Shown: positions 10,761 through 57,335 of the stretch, piece by piece | How positions within the stretch are numbered: position 1 is the stretch's first letter | Layout of the letters: every line of letters starts with the position of its first letter | Assembly (NCBI GenBank): GCA_041671485.1 | Contig: JBAZBL010000003.1 | Span: 25,412-89,411, forward strand | Length of the DNA stretch: 64,000 nt | Direction of reading: 5' to 3' | DNA from: Minisyncoccota bacterium | GTDB taxonomy: Bacteria > Patescibacteriota > Minisyncoccia > Phycocordibacterales > PALSA-1337 | The notes under the pieces: generated by a model | The model's input: only the letters and a program-made list of their open reading frames with translations | The model's database searches: none | What the model was told of the DNA's origin: nothing | Position numbers and translations under genes: made by a program

Positions 10761-11804
10761 ATGACAATAGACAAAGATAATCACGCAGAAATATCTATAT
10801 TAGTAACAGGTGGTCTTGGTTTCATCGGAAGCTGTTTTATCGAGATGCTCCTAAAGAAAGGAGATAGTGTTATAAATGTTGATAAAATGACTTATGCAAT
10901 AAGAGAAGACACCAATTTTGAAAAGCATCCAAATTATCAATTCGTTAAAAAAGATATATGTGATCTTAGAGGTTTACCTCAAAATATAAAATATATTGTA
11001 AATTTTGCAGCAGAATCCCATGTAGACAATTCAATAATAAGTACTGCCCAATTTTTCAAAAGCAATGTTCGTGGCGTATATAACTTGCTTGAATTGATAA
11101 GGAGATTACCGAAAGAAAGACGACCTGTATTTATTCAGATCTCAACTGATGAAGTCTATGGTGATATATTGACAGGATCATTCAAGGAAACAGATCCACT
11201 CAAACCCTCTAGTCCATATTCGGCAACAAAAGCAGCAGCAGATCAATTGGTCATGGGTTGGGGAAGGACTTATGGATTGAAATATCGAATAACTAGAAGT
11301 AGCAATAATTATGGATATGGGCAACGTCCAGAGAAATTGATACCAAAAGCAATGAAATTGGCTATGAAGAATGAGAAGATACCAATTCACGGTGATGGTT
11401 CATATCGTCGCGAATGGATATATACAGAGGACAATTGCAGAGCTATAATCCTTGTCATGGAAAGAGGTCTTGATGGTGAAATATATAATATTTCTACTGG
11501 AGAAGAATTCACAAATCTTGAAGTTGTAAAAAAAGTATTGGTAACCATGAATAAACCCAATAATATGTATAGATACGTAACAGATCGTCCAGGACAAGAT
11601 GTCAGATACTATGTCGATTCGAGCAAAATAAGAAGTCTTGGTTGGCAACCCAAAATGACACTCGATCAATATCTACCCATCTGTAAAAAACTGAATGAAG
11701 AAAGGACTCGAAATTTACCCCTCGGAAAAAAAGAACGTTTAGCAAGAATGTTTGGTCTATCAAAACTATTTTATGCCCAACCCAATAAGGAAAATATTCA
11801 ATAA
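10761..11804 (+). CDS. NAD-dependent epimerase/dehydratase, dTDP-glucose 4,6-dehydratase-like
   Basis: VTGGLGFIGS Rossmann motif, DKMTYA, STDEVYGD and the YSATKAAAD catalytic YxxxK. Confidence 0.65.
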   Translation: MTIDKDNHAEISILVTGGLGFIGSCFIEMLLKKGDSVINVDKMTYAIREDTNFEKHPNYQFVKKDICDLRGLPQNIKYIVNFAAESHVDNSIISTAQFFKSNVRGVYNLLELIRRLPKERRPVFIQISTDEVYGDILTGSFKETDPLKPSSPYSATKAAADQLVMGWGRTYGLKYRITRSSNNYGYGQRPEKLIPKAMKLAMKNEKIPIHGDGSYRREWIYTEDNCRAIILVMERGLDGEIYNISTGEEFTNLEVVKKVLVTMNKPNNMYRYVTDRPGQDVRYYVDSSKIRSLGWQPKMTLDQYLPICKKLNEERTRNLPLGKKERLARMFGLSKLFYAQPNKENIQ

Positions 11805-15179: not shown

Positions 15180-16673
15180 CTAGCGATGTTTTAAAATTGA
15201 ATATTTATACGCCGTCTGATCTAAAATATAGTTTCCGAAGACAGTATCTTTTTGTGGATCATATTTTGATGTTTCAACTATAACCATATCTATTGTACCA
15301 GATTTGAGATGAGATAATTGTTCTTTACCGATCGTATTGATACGCGTCGTAAGAATAGATTGATAATAATTCTTGCTTTGAATAAATGGTGCAACTTCTG
15401 GTGTATCATAAAAAAATACTGATGTTGTAGTTGAGGTCTTGCTAAAATATTCTTGCCAAAACTCTGTTTTATGACTTCCATATGCTTCTGCAACCCAAGA
15501 ATTGAACATTAACTGATATAGGCCAAATAAAGAAAGAAGTACAATCGCAATAACAGGAATACTTTTCTCGTAATACTTAAAAATATTTAGATACCTAGAT
15601 CTATCAAAAATGAAATTATTTATAACTCTTAGTGTATTTGGCAAAAATACAAGTATCAATATCTGTGCTGGGAAAAAATATCTGAATATTCCACCAATGC
15701 GCAGATAAGAAACCATAATAGTAATACTAAATATAAAAGCAATTATCTCCTCGATATTGATCTTCTCTTTTATATATACTTTTATTGATATAGCGAAAAC
15801 CCAAAGTGATATGAGGATCACTGTATATATAGTACTTATATTTGTGAACAAAGCATTGATACTCTGCATAACAACGGTCAAAATACTCTTATGATAATTT
15901 GGATCTTCAAAAGCATAAGGATTGGCATAATAACTAAATACTTGAAATACCGAATCACCAGACTGAAATTGGATGAAAAACCAAGCAATAATTGGCATAC
16001 AAAAAGATAATACACCTATCAGAATACTCTTTTTGGAAATATCCCCACGTTTCCACCCAACAATAATCCCTACAATAATTGCAGGTGCCAATAGGATAAA
16101 AAAAGGTTTAGTTGATATACATAAACCTGCAAAGATGCCAGACAAGATTATCCACACTGTCTTCTTGTCTTTTGTAGATATGACAAGATTTAAAAATAAT
16201 AGAAATAAGATAAAATACAATAGACCAGGAACTTCACCCAGAATACTCTTGCCATTACCATACAATGGTGCAAACGTTGCAAGAAGAGCCATCGATCCAA
16301 GAGCTGTAATATTACTAAATATTCTTTTTACCAGAAAATAACTTGCTATTATGAGTGCCAAAATAAACACTGCCATAAGTGCGCGACCAGACAATACACT
16401 TATCCCAAAGACTTTCATCCATAAGGCCAATGGGTAAATAAGTGGATAACTCACTGTCTGATACATTGAAATATGCATGATATTTCCCGGAGCCAATTGG
16501 AGTCCAAATACACCACTTTCGGCCAAATTGGTGGCGCTTTGGAAATACCATCCTTCGTCATACCAAAAAGATGGACTTTCAGTTAGTTGATAGGTTGCAA
16601 AAAAAATAGTGACTACAAATAAGACACATATAATTACTTTACTTATTTGCCTGCTACTAAGATCTTTAAACAT
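15180..16673 (-). CDS. GT-C fold glycosyltransferase, PMT/ArnT-like (family 39/83-like) polytopic membrane protein
   Basis: About 12 TM helices. First extracytoplasmic loop carries SPSFWYDEGWY (DE motif) as in ArnT/PMT enzymes. Confidence 0.55.
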   Translation of the reverse strand: MFKDLSSRQISKVIICVLFVVTIFFATYQLTESPSFWYDEGWYFQSATNLAESGVFGLQLAPGNIMHISMYQTVSYPLIYPLALWMKVFGISVLSGRALMAVFILALIIASYFLVKRIFSNITALGSMALLATFAPLYGNGKSILGEVPGLLYFILFLLFLNLVISTKDKKTVWIILSGIFAGLCISTKPFFILLAPAIIVGIIVGWKRGDISKKSILIGVLSFCMPIIAWFFIQFQSGDSVFQVFSYYANPYAFEDPNYHKSILTVVMQSINALFTNISTIYTVILISLWVFAISIKVYIKEKINIEEIIAFIFSITIMVSYLRIGGIFRYFFPAQILILVFLPNTLRVINNFIFDRSRYLNIFKYYEKSIPVIAIVLLSLFGLYQLMFNSWVAEAYGSHKTEFWQEYFSKTSTTTSVFFYDTPEVAPFIQSKNYYQSILTTRINTIGKEQLSHLKSGTIDMVIVETSKYDPQKDTVFGNYILDQTAYKYSILKHR

Positions 16674-25907: not shown

Positions 25908-25944
25908 GAGTGTAGTCTACCAAAAATCCACGAAATTCCAAGTG

Positions 25945-26135
25945 TTTTGGATAATTGCAAGCAACATTTGATTTTTAGTTTTGGCAACCTGTTTGAGCGC
26001 AGTATAAATTTCTTGACAAAATACTGCTGTTAGCTGGAATTGCTCGATGTATGACATCGAGCAATTCCGCAAGTATTTTGTCTAGAAATTTAACGGAGCG
26101 AGTCTTGCCAAAACTAAAAATCAAATGTTGCTTGC
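25945..26135. repeat. Family A long nested palindromic repeat, copy 1
   Basis: Perfect 32-bp terminal inverted repeat (ttgcaagcaacatttgatttttagttttggcaa / ttgccaaaactaaaaatcaaatgttgcttgca). Inner perfect 15-bp IR (ggaattgctcgatgt-atg-acatcgagcaattcc). Conserved unpaired motifs tgagcg (left) and ggagcgagt (right). Confidence 0.6.
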
Positions 26136-26139
26136 ACTA

Positions 26140-29266: not shown

Positions 29267-29479
29267 CTAATGAGTAGCGGGTAACATTGTTTCCGGAGGG
29301 ATCCATCCTTTTTGGATCAATAGATGAGCTTGAGCTCTGTCCTTGATCCGACGTCCAATACCGTGCCTCATAAGAAACCTCTGAACCTTGTCAAAGGCTT
29401 CATTAGGGACATGTACTCTTGGCGTTTTTGAATGATCCTTGAGAACAGGACCTACCGGTAACTGGAATGTTCTAGCCAT
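29267..29479 (-). CDS. Small hypothetical protein (70 aa), possible ribbon-helix-helix DNA-binding fold
   Basis: Intact ORF with its own terminator and a plausible upstream promoter. Pattern PRVHVPNEAFDKVQRFLMRHG..RRIKDRAQAHLL is compatible with a beta-strand plus two helices. Noticeably GC-richer than its neighbours. Confidence 0.35.
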   Translation of the reverse strand: MARTFQLPVGPVLKDHSKTPRVHVPNEAFDKVQRFLMRHGIGRRIKDRAQAHLLIQKGWIPPETMLPATH

Positions 29480-29499
29480 AACTTAACTAACGAACGTTA

Positions 29500-29575
29500 A
29501 CCGATTTTGATTTTGTATGTGCTTCCCACCCATCGAACAATCATCCGACTAGCACATGCTCCGAGTGAAGATAGT
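29500..29575 (-). promoter_or_regulatory. Putative sigma70-like promoter and long 5' leader for the small ORF
   Basis: - strand ttgcca-N17-actatc / tggtactat (extended -10-like) about 100 nt upstream of the ATG. Confidence 0.25.
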
Positions 29576-29608
29576 ACCACTTATGAAAAATATGGCAAGT
29601 GCATAACT

Positions 29609-29830
29609 ATTACTAATATTGTAGGCATCTAGGAAATATGAGTTTTCGCAAATCGAGGACTGTCTGAGCGACTAAAAATTGCTTGATAAAATGCGTAGGT
29701 TGCGGGAATTGCTACGATACTGAGGCATTTCTAATGCCGAAGTATCGAGCAATTCAATAGCATTTTATCTAGCAATTTAAGGAGCGAGTTCCGCAGATTT
29801 GCGAAAACTCATATTTCCTAGATGCCTACA
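29609..29830. repeat. Family A long nested palindromic repeat, copy 2
   Basis: Perfect 35-bp terminal IR (tgtaggcatctaggaaatatgagttttcgcaaatc and its reverse complement). Inner IRs aaattgcttgataaaatgc/gcattttatctagcaattt and gaattgctacgatact/agtatcgagcaattc. Shares actgtctgagcg and ggagcgagttccgcag motifs with the other copies. Confidence 0.6.
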
Positions 29831-31013
29831 TAGGAGACTCTTCGAGAAAAATCCTCTTATCATACACACTCCCTGCATTCCACAACATCCAACTATCGAA
29901 GCCAGCGTCATATGTCGCTTGCATTTGTTTCCTCACCATTTCTGGCGTATATGTTGCACCAAGGTTAAATGCTTGAAGCCATGGACGTAATTTGTTTGGT
30001 GTAGAAGAAGCATTGTATATTTTCACAAAAGCTTGATCCATAGAATATTTCACGACTTTATATGGTTCTGTAGCAGGTTTCTCTATACCGATAAAGCCAT
30101 ATGCAAAATGTGATGGATATACCATAGGACCAACATAGTCAAAATATATGAGAGCATCTTCTAGAACTTGACCAATACCCAAGTCACCACTAGCACTAGT
30201 CGTAAGCCCAAATAGATCCGCGGAGAGAACTGCTTTTGTTTCTGACATTTGCTGGCGCAGATATGCAAAGAAACTAGAAAGAATATTCGTTCTATGTGTT
30301 GTAGAACTTATATTATAAAGTATGTCTTTTATATTTCCATCAGATGGAAAACGTATATAGTCATAATTCAATTCATCGAAACCAATAGATGAAGCTTCTT
30401 TGGAAAGATCTACTATATAATCCCAAAATACTTTTGAACCAGGGTGAATATAAGCGAGACCCATATTGTCATGCCAAGACGATTCAGGATTGGATACTTT
30501 CTTTATAGCTGATTCAGGATACTTGGATGCATATAGAGGATCTTGGAATACTGTAATCCTAGCTATTACATATATACCCAATTCATGCAATTCATTTATA
30601 AATTCTGGAAAATCTTGTACGATACAACCTCTACCACGAGCATAATTCCCTACCGTCGTAGAAGAATACGATACTGTACCTGTATAGTCTTTTAGATCAA
30701 CAACGATACTATTCAATTCTGTTCCTTTGAAAAGTTCAATGGTTTTATTGCGCAATCTCTTTTCGCTAGCTGTACATGCGGTGATATATATAGCTTTGAC
30801 AGGAATGGGTGTAGCGATATGAGTGATGGTAGGTTTGGCAATAATATTATTGGTCAAAGTTGATACATCAATATCATCTGATGTATTTGAATATTTGATT
30901 ACGCCAATAGATGATATAAATATCAAATAAGAGAGTATTGCAAGAATAAAAAAAGCACCAACGATGACCGTGACAATTCGCGTTGCGCCAAACTTACGCC
31001 ACTCTTTTATCAT
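29826..31013 (-). CDS. Membrane-anchored putative glycoside-hydrolase-like (TIM-barrel) protein
   Basis: N-terminal TM anchor followed by a roughly 350-aa domain with alternating beta/alpha pattern and conserved acidic residues (GFDELNYDYIRFP). Family assignment is tentative. Confidence 0.35.
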   Translation of the reverse strand: MIKEWRKFGATRIVTVIVGAFFILAILSYLIFISSIGVIKYSNTSDDIDVSTLTNNIIAKPTITHIATPIPVKAIYITACTASEKRLRNKTIELFKGTELNSIVVDLKDYTGTVSYSSTTVGNYARGRGCIVQDFPEFINELHELGIYVIARITVFQDPLYASKYPESAIKKVSNPESSWHDNMGLAYIHPGSKVFWDYIVDLSKEASSIGFDELNYDYIRFPSDGNIKDILYNISSTTHRTNILSSFFAYLRQQMSETKAVLSADLFGLTTSASGDLGIGQVLEDALIYFDYVGPMVYPSHFAYGFIGIEKPATEPYKVVKYSMDQAFVKIYNASSTPNKLRPWLQAFNLGATYTPEMVRKQMQATYDAGFDSWMLWNAGSVYDKRIFLEESPM

Positions 31014-31015
31014 TT

Positions 31016-31276
31016 TTATATTTCGGATAATGGACGACTAATAATTGTTTCATCTCTTGTAGGAGGAGAAAGTGATTTTTCTTTATGTTCAATATATGGC
31101 AATGCTTCTTGATCGGCCTTACTCATCTCACGAGTAGTGCAAATCCTATAAGCCAAGAATATTATGAGAAGACCGATAAATATATATATTATATTGTCCC
31201 AAGTAGATGGAAAACCAAGATATGGTAATACCATAACGATGATTCCAAGAATTATTAACCATTGTCTTTTTGACAT
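31016..31276 (-). CDS. Small membrane protein (2 TM)
   Basis: 86 aa with two hydrophobic helices; tightly packed with the upstream gene. Confidence 0.4.
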   Translation of the reverse strand: MSKRQWLIILGIIVMVLPYLGFPSTWDNIIYIFIGLLIIFLAYRICTTREMSKADQEALPYIEHKEKSLSPPTRDETIISRPLSEI

Positions 31277-31334
31277 GTTGCAATTATAACCCGAAATGAT
31301 AGAATCGCGCTAGAAGGATAGTACGAAAAAAAAT

Positions 31335-31715
31335 ATGAATGAAATATCTGCGCAGATACCTGATGCAACATACTACAAGGTATGTATGTTTGGCACAGCG
31401 TTTGATGACAATTACGCTGGAGAATTGCGAAGTGCACATTTTGTGGAAAATGAGCTCCACGTAATCTTTCATTTTGTAACAAGGATACATAAGAGAGGTG
31501 ACCCTCCAAAGTGGCAGGTTGATGATAAGGGTAAGGTTATATGTGATTATGAGATCATCTTTGAGGGTTGTGTGGTCTTGGAAAATAATGGTATAGACCG
31601 CATCAAAGTCAAATCTACACAGGGAGATGTTGTAACCCTTTCCTCTACGAAACAAGACATTGCGATTGTCCACGAATTGATCGAGAATGCACTTGAGATC
31701 ATACGCAGTCGTTAG
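31335..31715 (+). CDS. Hypothetical protein
   Basis: 126-aa ORF with a downstream hairpin terminator; no recognisable motif. Confidence 0.4.
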   Translation: MNEISAQIPDATYYKVCMFGTAFDDNYAGELRSAHFVENELHVIFHFVTRIHKRGDPPKWQVDDKGKVICDYEIIFEGCVVLENNGIDRIKVKSTQGDVVTLSSTKQDIAIVHELIENALEIIRSR

Positions 31716-31721
31716 CAAAGC

Positions 31722-31753
31722 CACGTCTATTCAATTTCACTGACGTGGCTCTT
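31722..31753 (+). terminator. Hairpin terminator (agccacgtc...gacgtggct followed by cttttatttgg)
   Basis: 9-bp stem with a T-rich tail immediately after the stop of 31335-31715. Confidence 0.45.
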
Positions 31754-32560
31754 TTATTTGGAAACTATTACTACAAATTCACCGCGGACTTTATCGGAAT
31801 TCAATTCAAAATATTTCACAACTTCATCTACCGAACCACTGACTACTTCTTCGAATATTTTTGTAAGTTCTCTGCATACAGTTATTTTCATCGATTTTTG
31901 AATATCTTCATAGTATGCATGGCAACAGTCTCGTAACGAAGCCGACACCCCCCGACGAGACTTAACAGCGTGGTGCGATGCGTCTCGGAGGGGGGTAGTC
32001 GGCGAAGTTATCGAGATTGTTGCCAATGACTTCAGCGTCTTCAATATCCTATGTGGTGATTCGTAGAAAATCATGGTTCGTTTTGATGCAATAATTTCTT
32101 TTAGCAAAGTCTCTTTCCCCTTCTTATGAGGCAAAAATCCCAAGAAGGTGAAATCATTGTGAGATATTCCTGCAATAGAAAAAGCAGAGATGAGAGCAGA
32201 TGGACCAGGAATAGATTCTATTTTCAATTCATTTTCTTCTATCTCTTTTGCACATTCTTTCCTGATCCTCGCTACAAGCTCCGAACCAGGATCAGATATA
32301 CATGGTGTACCTGCGTCAGAGACAAGAGCAAGATTTTTGCCAGATTTCAAAAGTCCTATTATCTCCTCTACTCGCGAAAGTCTACTATGCATATGATATG
32401 AAAGTGTATGTGTTTTGATCTCATATTTATCGAGAAGTTTGCGTGTGACTCTGGTATCTTCGCACAATATCAAGTCCACATTCTTGAGTACTTCAATAGC
32501 CCGAAGTGTGATATCACCGAGATTGCCAATTGGAGTGCCAACGACAGATAAAGTAGACAT
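31754..32560 (-). CDS. rsmI: 16S rRNA (cytidine1402-2'-O)-methyltransferase RsmI, carrying an in-frame GC-rich palindromic insertion
   Basis: MSTLSVVGTPIGNLGDITLRAIEVLKNVDLILCEDTR ... YESPHRILKTL ... CRELTKIFEE tetrapyrrole-methylase-fold motifs. About 37 extra residues sit between LKSL and KITVCRELTK. Confidence 0.75.
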   Translation of the reverse strand: MSTLSVVGTPIGNLGDITLRAIEVLKNVDLILCEDTRVTRKLLDKYEIKTHTLSYHMHSRLSRVEEIIGLLKSGKNLALVSDAGTPCISDPGSELVARIRKECAKEIEENELKIESIPGPSALISAFSIAGISHNDFTFLGFLPHKKGKETLLKEIIASKRTMIFYESPHRILKTLKSLATISITSPTTPLRDASHHAVKSRRGVSASLRDCCHAYYEDIQKSMKITVCRELTKIFEEVVSGSVDEVVKYFELNSDKVRGEFVVIVSK

Positions 32561-32601: not shown

Positions 32602-33150
32602 CTACTCCTGATGAATGATATTTGTCAAAATAGCGTATTCATCCTTTTCCTTGACTTCATTATCTTTCCAATAATCTGTAAGATTATTCCGGATTTCCTG
32701 CCCCATCATTCTTTGTTGAATCCATTTTTGACTTCGTCCCATTCCCTGCCAATAATGTCTACTACGATTGAGCGCCTTTTCTGGGTCGTTTATTTCTTCG
32801 ATTCTTTCATAACCCACTTTCGCCAACCACAATTTGAACGGCTCAGCTTTTGGTGATGGGATTGACTGGATTACACGAAACATCGTCTCCGTATCAGCCG
32901 CATCTGTTAGATAAAATTTACCATCCGCAGCTCGCATTTTCAGTTGGTTACATTTTGTAACCACCTCACTTCCTTCTTGTTTTAAGCGGTTTTTCAACAC
33001 TTTCCAATAATTTCTCGGATTTTCACTAGCATTGAGCGCACCAACCACATCAACCACCGAAAAATACCATAACTCTTTTTCCTCATCCCAAATCCTGCGT
33101 ATTTTTTTGCCTTCGAATATGGCTAACTTATTTGATTTCATGATTACCAC
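32602..33150 (-). CDS. Bro-N domain protein, DinD-like (DNA-damage-inducible protein D / phage antirepressor-like)
   Basis: FEGKKIRRIWDEEKELWYFSVVDVVGAL (Bro-N) and IQSIPSPKAEPFKLWLAKVGYERIEEINDPE, as recalled for DinD-like proteins. Confidence 0.6.
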   Translation of the reverse strand: MVIMKSNKLAIFEGKKIRRIWDEEKELWYFSVVDVVGALNASENPRNYWKVLKNRLKQEGSEVVTKCNQLKMRAADGKFYLTDAADTETMFRVIQSIPSPKAEPFKLWLAKVGYERIEEINDPEKALNRSRHYWQGMGRSQKWIQQRMMGQEIRNNLTDYWKDNEVKEKDEYAILTNIIHQE

Positions 33151-35295: not shown

Positions 35296-35466
35296 ATCAG
35301 GAAAAGGTTATGTCATTTCGTGAATCGAGTACTGTCCGAGCGTAGTCATTCGACTAGTATTTCCCAAAAGATGAGGCCGTTTATGTCCGAGAGGCCGAGT
35401 CTTTTGTGGAAATACAGGAGAATGACGCAAGCGAGTTACGCAGATTCACGAAATGACATAACCTTT
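35296..35466. repeat. Family A long nested palindromic repeat, copy 3
   Basis: Perfect 29-bp terminal IR (caggaaaaggttatgtcatttcgtgaatc / gattcacgaaatgacataaccttttcctg). Interior shares gtactgtccgagcg and gcaagcgagttacgcagatt motifs with copies 1 and 2. Confidence 0.6.
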
Positions 35467-35529
35467 TCCTGAGACTCATTCAAGGTTCTATAATCGCCAA
35501 AAACAGCTTTTTATGGTATCCTTTTTGTC

Positions 35530-39201: not shown

Positions 39202-39358
39202 CAAAAAAGCCCAACGAAATATACTCTCGAGCTGACACGCAATGCAATGTGAGCCATGAACAAATTGCCCATATTTGCTGAATCCTTGTAAGCAAATATG
39301 GTTGCAATTTGGAATGGCGACCTTGCGTGGAGGCGAGAGAGATATTTCGTCGGGCTTT
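39202..39358. repeat. Family B structured palindromic repeat, copy A (bidirectional terminator-like)
   Basis: Roughly 155-nt rod: an outer 25-bp stem flanked by T-runs on both strands and an inner long hairpin (cccatatttgct/agcaaatatgg). About 90 percent identical to 57180-57335, with compensatory substitutions in the stems. Confidence 0.6.
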
Positions 39359-39367
39359 TAATATAAA

Positions 39368-53960: not shown

Positions 53961-54992
53961 TTAAAATGACCGCAGATATTCCTCAAGCAATCGGTCATAT
54001 ATTGGTTGCAATATGCACTGATAATTATAGGCATTACCATGCTTTAACATACCCAAATAAGACGAGACTGTTTCGAACTTTGGCTCGTTATTGCATTTAT
54101 TCATCATTCTTCTTCTGGTAGTTGTCCTTAACACCCGATGATCTGGAAAGTGTATCCAGCCCAAAAAGTCAACGCCCGAAGCAAAAGTCTTGAGAAATGT
54201 TTTGTCGGGATGTAATGACAAATGGAGTTTTTCTTTCAAAAATTGGTCCATATCTGTAAGCATAGATAAAAGTAATTTGTGATCAGTGTTAAGGATTACA
54301 AAATCATCGGCATAACGAATATAGTATTTGACTTTGATTTTATGCTTCATGAATTGATCGAATTTATTCATGTAAATATTCGCGAATAATTGAGAAGTTA
54401 AATTTCCTAGTGGCATACCAACATTTGGGTCACCCGAATGAAAACTGTTTATTATTTGATCTAACAGATGAAGAATGTCCCGGTCGGGAATATAGGAATT
54501 GAGTATGTCAAATAATATTTGATGATCTATTGAAGCAAAGAACTTTCTAATATCACATTTCAAAACCCAAACAGTTTTTGTATGATTGCACGATGCTTGT
54601 CTGGCAAACTCGCTAAATTTTTTGAAGGCTCTATGTGTACCTTTGTCGATCCTACAAGAATATGAATCAGAGATGAAAGTTCGGTCAAAGAATGGGTATA
54701 GTTTCCTGTAAAGTGCTCGATGTAAAATTCGATCTCTTACAGTAGCTTTATGGATATTACGAGGTTTGGGATCATTGATTTTGAAGGGCATATATGGACC
54801 ATGTACAAATGTTCTATTTTTCAAATCTTTGTGGAGTTGTAATAGGTGTCTCATTAACTGTAATCGAAATTCAGCTACATCTTCCCTTCTGTCTTTGTCG
54901 GCTGAAAATTCATTCCACGCCTCTAGTAAATTCTCAATGGATATGATAGCTTCGTAGTTATGGCTGAATTGAATTCGTCCCATATTTCTCAT
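53961..54992 (-). CDS. Diversity-generating retroelement (DGR) reverse transcriptase
   Basis: 343 aa; RT motifs including PLGNLTSQLFANIYM (the DGR-type I/LGxxxSQ motif rather than the group II QGxxxSP) and YIRYADDFVIL (YADD). Lies directly downstream of the TR on the same strand. Confidence 0.85.
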   Translation of the reverse strand: MRNMGRIQFSHNYEAIISIENLLEAWNEFSADKDRREDVAEFRLQLMRHLLQLHKDLKNRTFVHGPYMPFKINDPKPRNIHKATVRDRILHRALYRKLYPFFDRTFISDSYSCRIDKGTHRAFKKFSEFARQASCNHTKTVWVLKCDIRKFFASIDHQILFDILNSYIPDRDILHLLDQIINSFHSGDPNVGMPLGNLTSQLFANIYMNKFDQFMKHKIKVKYYIRYADDFVILNTDHKLLLSMLTDMDQFLKEKLHLSLHPDKTFLKTFASGVDFLGWIHFPDHRVLRTTTRRRMMNKCNNEPKFETVSSYLGMLKHGNAYNYQCILQPIYDRLLEEYLRSF

Positions 54993-55017
54993 AATACCCC
55001 CCCCACGGTTTTTACCA

Positions 55018-55404
55018 GTTGTCGAAAAGCTTAAATCAAGCTACAAACTTTGGCATGAATATCACGGACTCGTACCGAAAACACAAAGATATTCGCTTGG
55101 CAATAGAATAGATAATCTCTTAGTAGAAAGCATCGAAGCGACAGTAACTGCGACATTTTTATCAAAAGAAGAGAAATTACCGTGGATACGACTGGCAATT
55201 CGAAAAACCGATACATTGAAAGTTTTACTCATGATTTTATGGGAAACTAAATCAATAGATGATAAAAAATATATTGCTCTTTCTGTGAAATTAGATGAGG
55301 TCGGCAAGATGCTCGGTGGTTGGAGTGGACAGCTTATAAAATCTACCTCTACTAAAACTATAGTGAATAAACAAAACTCTCCAGCAAAAGCAGGAGAGAA
55401 ATGA
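55018..55404 (+). CDS. Avd-like four-helix-bundle protein (accessory variability determinant family) on the opposite strand to the RT; no canonical start codon as sequenced
   Basis: Frame open from 54973 to the TGA at 55402-55404. Translation ...KLKSSYKLWHEYHGLVPKTQRYSLGNRIDNLLVESIEATVTATFLSKEEKLPWIRLAIRKTDTLKVLLMILWETKSIDDKKYIALSVKLDEVGKMLGGWSGQLIK matches the 23S-rRNA-IVS/Avd four-helix-bundle pattern. An ATG at 54960 is one frame off, across a C8 tract. Confidence 0.45.
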   Translation, partial: VVEKLKSSYKLWHEYHGLVPKTQRYSLGNRIDNLLVESIEATVTATFLSKEEKLPWIRLAIRKTDTLKVLLMILWETKSIDDKKYIALSVKLDEVGKMLGGWSGQLIKSTSTKTIVNKQNSPAKAGEK

Positions 55405-55412
55405 AGAGAGTC

Positions 55413-55534
55413 GCCGACACCGCCGCAGGGTTGTTGTCTTTGAAGTCGTTGTCAAGCCAGTTGTAGTTCCAGTCCCACCTGCCGCCGTTCCAGTTGAGGT
55501 AACGAACATAGAGGTTGTCATCGGCGCTGCGGTA
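55413..55534 (-). repeat. DGR template repeat (TR)
   Basis: 122 nt aligning gap-free with 55861-55982. All 17 differences are at TR adenines (sense = - strand). The TR sense strand is rich in AAC codons. Confidence 0.85.
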
Positions 55535-55778
55535 TCGTATGAAGCACCATCCATACCACCACCCCTCGGATACCCTCAGGGCTGAATCGTATTTGGCATC
55601 GTAATGCCTTAGCACCTCATACCAAGTATTTTCATTTTTTAATGAAGTTCTGCATACACCACTCTACCCAAAATCTTGGTCGTGGATATTCTCGATGTAT
55701 GGATACTGGTTTCGGTAGCAAGCAACATTAGTCGCTCACATATTCACCTACTCCCGCCACATCTTACCATATAAATCA

Positions 55779-55802
55779 GCCCCGCGCGTTGTCGCACGGG
55801 GC
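55779..55802 (-). other. GC-rich stem-loop downstream of the VR (candidate DGR homing-enhancing hairpin/cruciform)
   Basis: gccccgcgcg-ttgt-cgcacggggc: 10-bp stem (one C-A mismatch) with a 4-nt loop, about 58 nt beyond the IMH-like end of the VR. Confidence 0.45.
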
Positions 55803-55853
55803 CAAGGTCAAAGGTCACAGGTTCTGAAGAACAAAGTGACTGATGTTCAAGAG

Positions 55854-56474
55854 CTAACTTGCCGACACCGCCGCAGGGTCGAGGCCCCTGAAGTCGTTGT
55901 CAAGCCAGCGGCAGTTCCAGCCCCACCTGCCGCCGCCCCAGCGGAGGCAACGAACATAGAGGTCGTCATCGGCGCCGCGGTAGATGGTCCCCCAGAAGAA
56001 GATGTAGCGGGTGTTTCCGTTTTCATCCTTTTTCCATGCCTCGGGAATGAGGTGCGGGTTCTTCAGGAGATAATCCAAAACATTGGCGTTGAGGACTCGT
56101 TGCTTGGCGAGTTCCTTGCGCAGGTCATTGCCACGGATGGCATTGCCTTTCTTCTGGAGCTTGGACAACCAAAACTCGATTTTCTTGCCATCGAGATAGA
56201 GGTCGTCTCCACGGCATTCGAGCTTGGCAACCTTGCCACTCTGGTGTTCTTCCACCTTCCAGCCGTCAGGAAGGTAGGGGTCGGCACCGAGGTCAATGGC
56301 GTGTTCGATAGGCTTGATTTCATACAAACCCAGTTGGACACCCCTCACACGACCGAGGAAATCCCCGACAGTGAGCGCTTTGACTTCTTCCAGCGATTGG
56401 AAGCCGTTGCGGTTGAGCGCATGCTCGATTTCTTGAGCCAAACCAACACCGAGCGTTAACTTTATATTATCCAT
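55854..56474 (-). CDS. DGR target (variable) protein, 206 aa, with C-terminal VR
   Basis: Intact ORF whose last 40 codons or so are the VR. GC content is far above the genomic background. No obvious signal peptide. Confidence 0.8.
   Translation of the reverse strand: MDNIKLTLGVGLAQEIEHALNRNGFQSLEEVKALTVGDFLGRVRGVQLGLYEIKPIEHAIDLGADPYLPDGWKVEEHQSGKVAKLECRGDDLYLDGKKIEFWLSKLQKKGNAIRGNDLRKELAKQRVLNANVLDYLLKNPHLIPEAWKKDENGNTRYIFFWGTIYRGADDDLYVRCLRWGGGRWGWNCRWLDNDFRGLDPAAVSAS
55861..55982 (-). repeat. DGR variable repeat (VR) at the 3' end of the target gene
   Basis: Cognate of the TR. Encodes YRGADDDLYVRCLRWGGGRWGWNCRWLDNDFRGLDPAAVSA, against TR-encoded YRSADDNLYVRYLNWNGGRWDWNYNWLDNDFKDNNPAAVSA. 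Confidence 0.85.
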
Positions 56475-57179: not shown

Positions 57180-57335
57180 TAAAAAGCTTGGTGAAATATC
57201 TCTCGAGCCAACACGCAATGCGATCTGAGCCATGAACAAATTGCCCGTATTTGCCGAATCCTTGTAGGCAAATACGGTGCAATTTGGAATGGCGACCTTG
57301 CGTGGAGGCGAGGGAGATATTTCACCAAGCTTTTT
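57180..57335. repeat. Family B structured palindromic repeat, copy B (bidirectional terminator-like)
   Basis: Homologous to 39202-39358 with covarying stems (gcttggtgaaatat/atatttcaccaagc versus gcccaacgaaatat/atatttcgtcgggc; ccgtatttgcc/ggcaaatacgg versus cccatatttgct/agcaaatatgg). T-runs on both strands. Confidence 0.6.

Follow-up and report, generated by a model that had tools for sequence, protein, structure and literature searches.

The palindrome at positions 29620-29830 is interpreted here, with a probability of about 0.5, as a copy of a dispersed, non-coding, non-autonomous foldback insertion element of the MITE/REPIN/RPE kind. Three copies of this element, 25956-26136 (copy 1), 29620-29830 (copy 2), and 35297-35472 (copy 3), were found in the window, that is, the whole stretch of 64 kb of DNA analyzed here. 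About eleven further copies were found outside it, in Patescibacteria metagenomes and in one MAG. Together, these copies form a previously undescribed family of interspersed palindromic elements with unusual properties, herein referred to as family A. An earlier note on this DNA had assigned copy 2 to a repeat family, and the relatives well outside the window bear out this assignment.

Patescibacteria have tiny, tightly packed genomes, thought to be poor in repetitive DNA, and we know of no described family of interspersed structured elements in this group. In the literature, no description of palindromic or structured repeats in CPR bacteria was found. The mix of features is unusual: an interior shared across phyla, rapidly changing but compensated arms of 30-37 bp, insertion both at gene ends and within genes, and a permuted tandem form. 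If the element is mobile, an unknown mobilizing enzyme recognizing a folded single strand would be implied; if it acts as RNA, it would be a new RNA class; if it is a ribozyme or RNP, its spread in bacteria of two phyla would resemble that of retrozyme or viroid-like repeats. Such elements are prone to being mis-flagged as invertons or mis-called as small genes.

Structure of the Palindromic Element

The outer arms of copy 2 (Table 1) are 100% complementary over all 35 nt, which confirms the perfect terminal inverted repeat proposed in the earlier note; no equivalent was found in 100 shuffles of the window. The length proposed for the unit, 222 bp, is corrected to 211 bp because the palindrome begins only at 29620, and positions 29609-29619 are ordinary flank. 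Both of the proposed internal inverted repeats were recovered. One is 19 nt long (95%), with a single T.T mismatch in CTTG/CTAG, and the other is 15 nt long (87%), with a 3-nt loop between its arms. As RNA, copy 2 is predicted to fold from either strand into one long, almost continuous hairpin, with energies of -117.6 kcal/mol for the plus strand and -109.3 kcal/mol for the minus strand; as DNA, the energy is -73.2 kcal/mol. The z-score of the fold is about -15. The element contains no ORF.

The general layout of the family comprises an arm, CGAGGACTGTYTGAGCGA, a helix of the form AAATTNCTTGG.../...CCTAGNAATTT, a second small loop, an apical hairpin, RGAGCGAGTTCCGCAG, and the other arm. The outermost layer is a stem of 18-40 bp, which is 30-37 bp long and perfect in AT-rich hosts. 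It encloses a conserved asymmetric internal loop, where CGAGGACUGUYUGAGCGA faces RGAGCGAGUUCCGCAG; throughout the family, CGAGGACTGTYTGAGCGA and RGAGCGAGTTCCGCAG are the near-invariant pair facing each other across this loop. Pairing of GAGGA with UCCGC, including a conserved A.G mismatch, is possible between the two loop strands, and their GAGCGA/GAGCGA segment can form a stretch rich in G.A juxtapositions. By analogy with k-turn-like motifs, this segment could adopt tandem sheared G.A pairs. Inside the loop lie the conserved helix of about 16 bp (with the T.T, or U.U, mismatch and a bulged A), the second small loop, which is degenerate in the window copies, and the variable apical hairpin.

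Two Logan contigs (L002 and L003, k=31), corresponding to window positions 29801-31974, include the DUF4015 gene and stop exactly 30 nt inside the right arm. The arms form a perfect 35-nt inverted repeat, and therefore assemblies made with short k break inside the arm. An assembly artefact as the source of the palindrome itself was ruled out by independent assemblies and by the covariation described below.

Table 1. Coordinates of the parts of copy 2, of the other family A copies in the window, and of the genes and promoter-like site next to copy 2.
Feature	Position	Strand	Details
Left outer arm, copy-specific sequence	29620-29654	+	35 nt, complementary to right arm
Left conserved loop motif CGAGGACTGTCTGAGCGA	29654-29671	+	Near-invariant in 12/14 members
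Inner helix, 5' strand AAATTGCTTGATAAAATGC, T.T mismatch	29676-29694	+	Pairs with 29760-29778
Variable apical hairpin (GGAATTGCT... stem and 15-nt arms 29715-29729/29733-29747)	29706-29756	+	Predicted pairing
Inner helix, 3' strand	29760-29778	+	Pairs with 29676-29694, covariation
Right conserved loop motif GGAGCGAGTTCCGCAG	29781-29796	+	Family alignment
Right outer arm, holding the stop codon of the upstream gene	29796-29830	+	35 nt
Family copy 1	25956-26136	+	181 bp, 32-nt perfect arms, 112 bits
Family copy 3	35297-35472	+	176 bp, 30-nt perfect arms, divergent interior, 47 bits
DUF4015 putative glycoside hydrolase gene	29826-31013	-	Pfam PF13200, E=1e-90
Promoter-like site TTGCCA-N16-(TG)TACTAT of the small downstream gene	29571-29598	-	22 nt beyond left arm
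Downstream 70-aa gene	29267-29479	-	ORF call

Family Members and Covariation

The three copies in the window, all on the plus strand, are about 68% alike (mean column identity) and share a left motif, CTGTYYGAGCG, and a right motif, RAGCGAGTY. The sharing of core motifs with copies 1 and 3 claimed in the earlier note therefore stands for the loop motifs. The claim that the three copies also share the cttgaYaaaat stem with its T.T mismatch holds for copy 1 and for most of the outside relatives but fails for copy 3, which has only the outer loop motifs, lacks this helix, and has a different interior.

Outside the window, a pattern scan of one genome per species yielded a single true relative among the matches listed, namely L184, a MAG labelled Saccharibacteria; the other matches listed were chance occurrences in high-GC genomes. 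A stricter pattern applied to metagenomes gave about ten more copies, mainly from 0.1-um fractions of Hainich groundwater and from soils. The exact 16-mer of the left loop motif is present at 14 loci. The 14 distinct copies, located by narrow exact-match patterns, are the whole studied set; elements range from 165 to 215 bp, and the density in the window is 3 copies in 64 kb. In viral contigs, a first pattern scan gave 113 chance matches without flanking arms and a second scan gave none. No family copy was found in plasmid and phage collections by BLAST.

The 14 copies were aligned with covariance model R1, so that the alignment is a model-fitted one. Standard pairs occupy 95% of its pair cells, and 25 of the 37 pairs vary on both sides, a number reached in 0/500 shuffles and approached by no slid register. 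In the inner helix, both sides have changed across the family in 8 of the 13 modelled pairs. The apical hairpin differs in length and sequence from copy to copy with its pairing retained (helices 7 and 8). The hairpin fold is thus preserved by compensatory change, as for a folded single strand.

Rfam covariance models, run in gathering and E-value modes on the window, the element, and four other loci, reported only tRNAs above threshold. The best sub-threshold matches were generic long-hairpin miRNA precursor models, for example one with 33 bits against a cut-off of 195. Likenesses of the element to retron, 6S, SRP, and RNase P sequences presumably reflect short chance motifs only.

Divergence and Pairing of the Arms

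The arms are homologous between copies and differ strongly in sequence. Those of copies 1 and 2 are identical at 20/32 positions (p=5e-5), those of copies 2 and 3 at 16/30 (p=0.001), and those of the orthologous copies in L184 and L242 at 21/36 (p=2e-4), the pairing being perfect in each of the latter two. Between L184 and L242, the flanks are 74-80% identical and the cores about 85% (by eye). Every arm difference between copies, both among the window copies and between L184 and L242, is mirrored in the partner arm. Overall, arm identity is only about 55-62% between copies, distant copies have unrelated arms, and conservation is internal. The arms, being homologous and having mirrored differences, are therefore part of the element and evolve fast in concert. 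The idea that a core had been inserted into a pre-existing terminator hairpin was rejected: the arms are homologous across copies, and a copy inside an ORF brought its own arms.

The perfect arms of L184 and L242, which nevertheless differ from each other, point to a function maintained in place, not to mere decay of a selfish insert. Low-GC hosts have arms that pair perfectly along 30-37 bp, and some G.T and other mismatches occur in GC-richer hosts. The arm pairs counted comprise 467 Watson-Crick, 13 G.U, and 7 A.C. This scarcity of G.U in perfect arms suggests a DNA-level process, for instance template-switch correction of quasi-palindromes, because many G.U pairs should remain if selection acted on RNA alone. 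If the arms are corrected at the DNA level, selection must be what keeps the conserved asymmetries of the interior. Of the non-canonical pairs overall, about 21 are G.U and 10 are A.C. At one of the pairs closing the loop, 8 copies have C:G and 6 have U.G. These observations hint weakly that folding takes place on the motif strand, possibly as RNA.

Recombination between the arms, flipping the interior and keeping the arms identical as in an inverton, would also explain perfect inverted repeats of 30-37 bp around a segment of 100-140 bp, their maintained identity, and the occurrence of the core in both orientations, albeit at different sites. We consider this very improbable. The interior is itself a near-palindrome, so flipping it changes little; no recombinase or invertase gene lies nearby in the window; and the arms are not a conserved recombinase site. 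Moreover, a single orientation was seen in the few independent assemblies available for comparison, namely the window and L001 and, for another element, L273, L274, and L276, as well as in the L184 and L242 orthologues. Control of orientation by the replication strand was likewise rejected: all five hairpins of the window are on the plus strand, yet two copies in L184, 3 kb apart, are opposite.

Insertion Sites

The gene order around the DUF4015 gene is conserved in eight other lineages. The gap between this gene and the small downstream gene is 346 nt in the window and 148-180 nt in L265, L267, L275, and L282. At the site of copy 3, the gap is 239 nt in the window against 26-81 nt in relatives, and at the site of copy 1 it is 232 nt against 2-112 nt. 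No element was detected in the relatives' gaps at the three sites by covariance model or repeat search. Since the gaps of syntenic relatives are short and element-free at all three sites, the window copies are lineage-specific insertions. Copy 2, including its arms, was inserted into the short gap between the DUF4015 stop codon and the next promoter.

No target-site duplications or shared flanking bases were found at 8 inspected copies, and the arm ends carry neither conserved termini nor a target tetranucleotide in the style of IS200/IS605 or IS91. The internal CTTG and GTTC were discounted as targets because they are too short to count.

For the 11 copies that could be interpreted, the distance between a stop codon and the start of the element is -5 to +13 nt. 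For copy 2 this agrees with the earlier note, which had placed the right end on the stop of 29826-31013; the right arm includes the TAG at 29826-29828 (minus strand). Of the 11 copies, 5 have the motif strand in the sense direction of the abutting gene and 6 in the antisense direction, so that orientation is random. Proximity to stop codons could result from purifying selection and is no proof of targeting, because in very compact genomes gene ends are the only tolerated landing zone.

The same position invites another reading, namely a host-selected, non-mobile 3'-end hairpin at a transcription-unit boundary, serving as terminator or insulator, RNase III site, or mRNA stabilizer. Besides the proximity to stops, this reading draws on a promoter-like site within about 50 nt after each window copy and on other hairpins at equivalent junctions. 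At the DUF4015 junction, the hairpins are an ordinary one of 24 bp with a T-rich tract in L284 and an unrelated element with arms of 49 bp in L270. At the site of the second, diverged copy of L184 (3540-3711), L242 and L275 have a canonical terminator. We nevertheless find it unlikely. A U-tract or T-run follows the hairpin at no copy, and a terminator scan of the window reported just an internal stem of copy 1. In most relatives, these junctions lack any hairpin, a plain hairpin does not need the conserved asymmetric loop, and the orientation is random with respect to transcription. Copies also occur inside ORFs, and closeness to a stop is expected of any insertion tolerated in a compact genome.

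Copies inside Genes

In the TraG-like gene of L267, an in-frame copy of 165 nt (55 codons) with 36-nt perfect GC-rich arms lies in a variable linker; the orthologue in the window is without it. The same two motifs were found in frame in trmD of Adlercreutzia (human gut, Actinomycetota), where they are translated as ERGLSER and ASSAA. Here the order is circularly permuted: the right motif comes first, followed by a short closed 12-bp "arm" hairpin and the left motif, and the inner helix is left open. Units follow one another in tandem and measure about 156 nt in the 331-aa form. Strains whose TrmD proteins are otherwise 96-100% identical differ in unit number, giving proteins of 293, 315, 326, 331, and 364 aa. 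The internal loop and the two helices that flank it are retained as a module in every case, whatever the connectivity.

These findings bear on the possibility that the element is a structured-RNA gene or module, such as an sRNA, a protein-binding k-turn-like RNP RNA, or a new self-cleaving ribozyme. Its transcript would carry the motif strand, the outer stem would serve for processing or closing, and activity would reside in the conserved loops. The covariation resembles that of functional RNA, the excess of G.U over A.C and the C:G/U.G loop-closing pair are in keeping with it, and both loop motifs are conserved across phyla. The Adlercreutzia strands are circularly permuted and in tandem, and known small ribozymes occur in both of these forms. 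On the other hand, about half of the copies are antisense to both neighbors, in tight operon-like contexts and with no conserved promoter of their own. Some copies are translated within ORFs, the second loop is degenerate in the window copies, no Rfam family matches, and the strand bias of the wobble pairs is weak. On balance, we hold this reading as a tentative alternative. A more specific form of it is doubtful: the loop module (the left loop strand given above, GAGCGAGUUCCGCAG, and the two flanking helices) might be a new self-cleaving ribozyme class or a k-turn/Nop-like RNP scaffold, spreading via an RNA or rolling-circle intermediate. The hints of a ribozyme are indirect and consist of the conserved loops, the permuted tandem form, and the lack of a match to known classes.

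Neighboring Genes and Promoters

An NCBI entry identical to the DUF4015 protein is labelled Candidatus Paceibacterota, and the next relatives are only 60% identical. The earlier note had placed the left end of copy 2 near the promoter of a small ORF. In agreement with this, a promoter-like site lies just beyond the left arm (Table 1), and its sequence, CACTTGC...TGGTA.T, is conserved at the orthologous loci of L267, L273, L275, and L284. The 70-aa product of the downstream gene matches no Pfam family; a gene for 66-106 aa is called at the equivalent place in seven related loci, matched by position only.

The leader of the small gene (29480-29570, minus strand) is about 85 nt long and starts with C[CT]CGGAGC right after the -10 element. 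Because this start and the promoter are conserved in relatives, with equivalents in L265, L267, and L273, the leader may be a regulatory leader or an RNA. Promoter-like sites with an extended -10 (TGGTA..T) were also found at 25908-25955 and 35473-35529, and the genes downstream of copies 1 and 3 have their start codons only a few bases beyond these sites. Such a short distance suggests that the mRNAs of these two genes may be near-leaderless.

Proposed Origin and Maintenance of the Element

The interpretation of copy 2 as an insertion element rests on the empty orthologous sites, the presence and absence of the element between L184 and L242/L275, the in-frame copies, and the variation in copy number in TrmD, together with the covarying family structure, the homologous and compensated arms, the random orientation, and the lack of an ORF, an Rfam match, and a U-tract. 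A trans-acting protein encoded elsewhere would recognize the conserved loop on a folded single strand, either ssDNA or RNA, and propagate the element. Complementarity of the arms would be kept through concerted evolution by template-switch correction, through selection for a foldable substrate, or through both. Against this reading, a Pfam scan of about 50 ORFs of the window found no gene for a transposase, recombinase, or Nop-domain protein as a mobilizing candidate, and the same ORFs comprise only housekeeping, glycosylation, and DGR genes. No evidence was found of a link between the element and the DGR reverse transcriptase of the window.

Copy 2 would be co-transcribed as the 3' end of the DUF4015 mRNA, where, judging from the predicted fold, a hairpin of -109 kcal/mol would start inside the stop codon. 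This hairpin may protect or define the 3' end of the mRNA and shield the promoter 22 nt downstream. A terminator, 3'-end-defining, RNase III-target, or insulator effect of copy 2 is a plausible hypothesis; any such effect would probably be a by-product rather than the reason for conservation.

The element departs from an active MITE in that its copies in the window are only about 68% alike, which would be unusual, and no near-identical recent copies were seen within a genome. It also reverses the pattern of a classical MITE, as its interior is conserved and its ends are not. Functional RNA is a serious rival to the insertion-element reading because young near-identical copies, terminal motifs, and target duplications are absent and the orthologues have kept perfect arms.

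Other Elements in the Window and Related Loci

A DGR was found at 53961-56474 of the window. It comprises a reverse transcriptase gene (53961-54992, minus strand, RVT_1), a template repeat at 55413-55534, and a variable repeat at 55861-55982, located at the 3' end of the ORF 55854-56474. The differences between the 122-nt repeats fall almost entirely at template adenines (13 A>G, 5 A>C, and 1 A>T).

Two hairpins at 39205-39359 and 57181-57335, herein referred to as family B, are about 90% alike, and the differences in their arms are compensated. One begins 13 nt after a stop codon and the other overlaps one by 1 nt. No Rfam family matches family B. Families A and B may be distant relatives, as the loop of B, with GAGC(U)GA opposite GGAG(G)CGA, resembles that of A.

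A third hairpin family was found in L270 (6226-6344, 9513-9632, and 11191-11312), with arms of 48-49 bp whose outer part is variable and whose inner part is conserved (CTCATTTTC..CACAAGTTTAGAGACA). Its members lie 5-27 nt after stop codons, twice at the junctions occupied in the window by copies 2 and 3. A further element of L270, at 2788-2914, has 32-bp arms and lies between convergent genes. In L273, an element at 16033-16197 (equivalent to 12553-12717 in L274 and 14931-15095 in L276) has 32-nt perfect arms and is identical in the three assemblies; its branched interior contains GGAGCG...GCGAGT motifs, and it is annotated in the source as a 65-aa "gene". L273 also contains a duplicated GC-rich palindrome around a run of N (11563-11742).

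L273 and L274, L275, and L276, which encode an identical DUF4015 protein, are mosaics of segments with 100%, 93%, 85%, and 80% identity, and this mosaic pattern suggests that recombination may be frequent in the population. In the window, ATP-grasp-like and RsmI-like genes are separated by a gene with a BRO-N domain (32602-33150). None of the syntenic relatives has this gene there, and it is thus probably an insertion derived from a phage. In L270, a gene of the 23S_rRNA_IVP family (Avd-like four-helix bundle) was found at 1237-1614 between those for a Mur ligase and PALP, in this one relative only.

Comparison with Known Systems

Two types of known single-strand structures were considered as identities of the element, an integron attC-type recombination site and a TIGR-type stem-loop guide RNA unit. 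As in attC sites, structure is conserved more than sequence, the element lies at a gene 3' end covering the upstream stop codon, and unpaired or mismatched bases are conserved in the folded strand. Family A has no R/L boxes, no R''/R' core sites (RYYYAAC/GTTRRRY), no integrase, and no cassette array. Its termini (TGTAGGC/TGCAAGC/TCAGGAA) contain no attC core sites, its own conserved boxes are buried within a stem of 30-37 bp, away from the ends, and its neighbors are syntenic housekeeping genes. TIGR units occur as tandem arrays beside a tas gene with a Nop domain and have two variable spacers of 8-12 nt and box C/D-like motifs (PMC12045711). CPR hosts, variable palindromic stems, and short conserved loop motifs are common to TIGR arrays and family A (PMC12045711), and the pseudo-symmetric loop, with GAGCGA opposite GAGCGA, could suit a dimeric protein. 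In contrast to TIGR units, family A copies are dispersed singletons without a tandem array, the segments between their motifs are conserved and base-paired rather than being 8-12-nt variable spacers, and no Nop-domain gene was found among the scanned ORFs. The likeness to TIGR-Tas is thus only a loose analogy. With the defining features of both types missing, an attC or TIGR identity is already largely refuted, and we give it next to no credence.

Like an intrinsic terminator, copy 2 is a hairpin placed between a stop codon, which it directly follows, and the next promoter. It differs in having about 95 paired positions instead of 5-15, in being AT-rich, in the absence of a U-tract, and in its conserved asymmetric interior.

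Correia/NEMIS, ERIC, and other bacterial MITEs insert in either orientation, are co-transcribed with their neighbors, and form long RNA hairpins; these can be substrates of RNase III or RNase E and influence the stability of the mRNA. Such elements have conserved terminal inverted repeats and target duplications (TA in Correia), whereas family A has neither. Family A resembles classical MITEs in being short, non-coding, and multi-copy and in showing insertion polymorphism; it differs from them in lacking sequence-conserved terminal repeats and target-site duplications.

REP/REPIN sequences are extragenic hairpin repeats near gene 3' ends that evolve with their hosts over the long term. A single-copy HUH enzyme acting in trans presumably recognizes them in folded single-stranded form. 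Family A likewise consists of long-lived hairpin repeats near gene ends. Unlike REPINs, its arm ends lack a GTAG-type 5' motif, and no RAYT/Y1 gene was found among the about 50 ORFs of the 64 kb. Its copies are few and diverged at each locus rather than forming large near-identical populations, are much longer, at 165-215 bp, and contain a conserved asymmetric internal loop.

RPEs are non-coding palindromic inserts of about 100-200 bp that occur both in intergenic regions and in frame within genes, with no known transposase and no clear target duplications. Family A shares this distribution, being intergenic as well as in frame inside conserved genes (the TraG-like gene of L267 and Adlercreutzia TrmD of 293-364 aa). 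The two differ in that RPE sequence is shared over the full length, whereas family A is conserved only inside, with long arms that are copy-specific yet paired, and in that the hosts of family A are Patescibacteria and Adlercreutzia.
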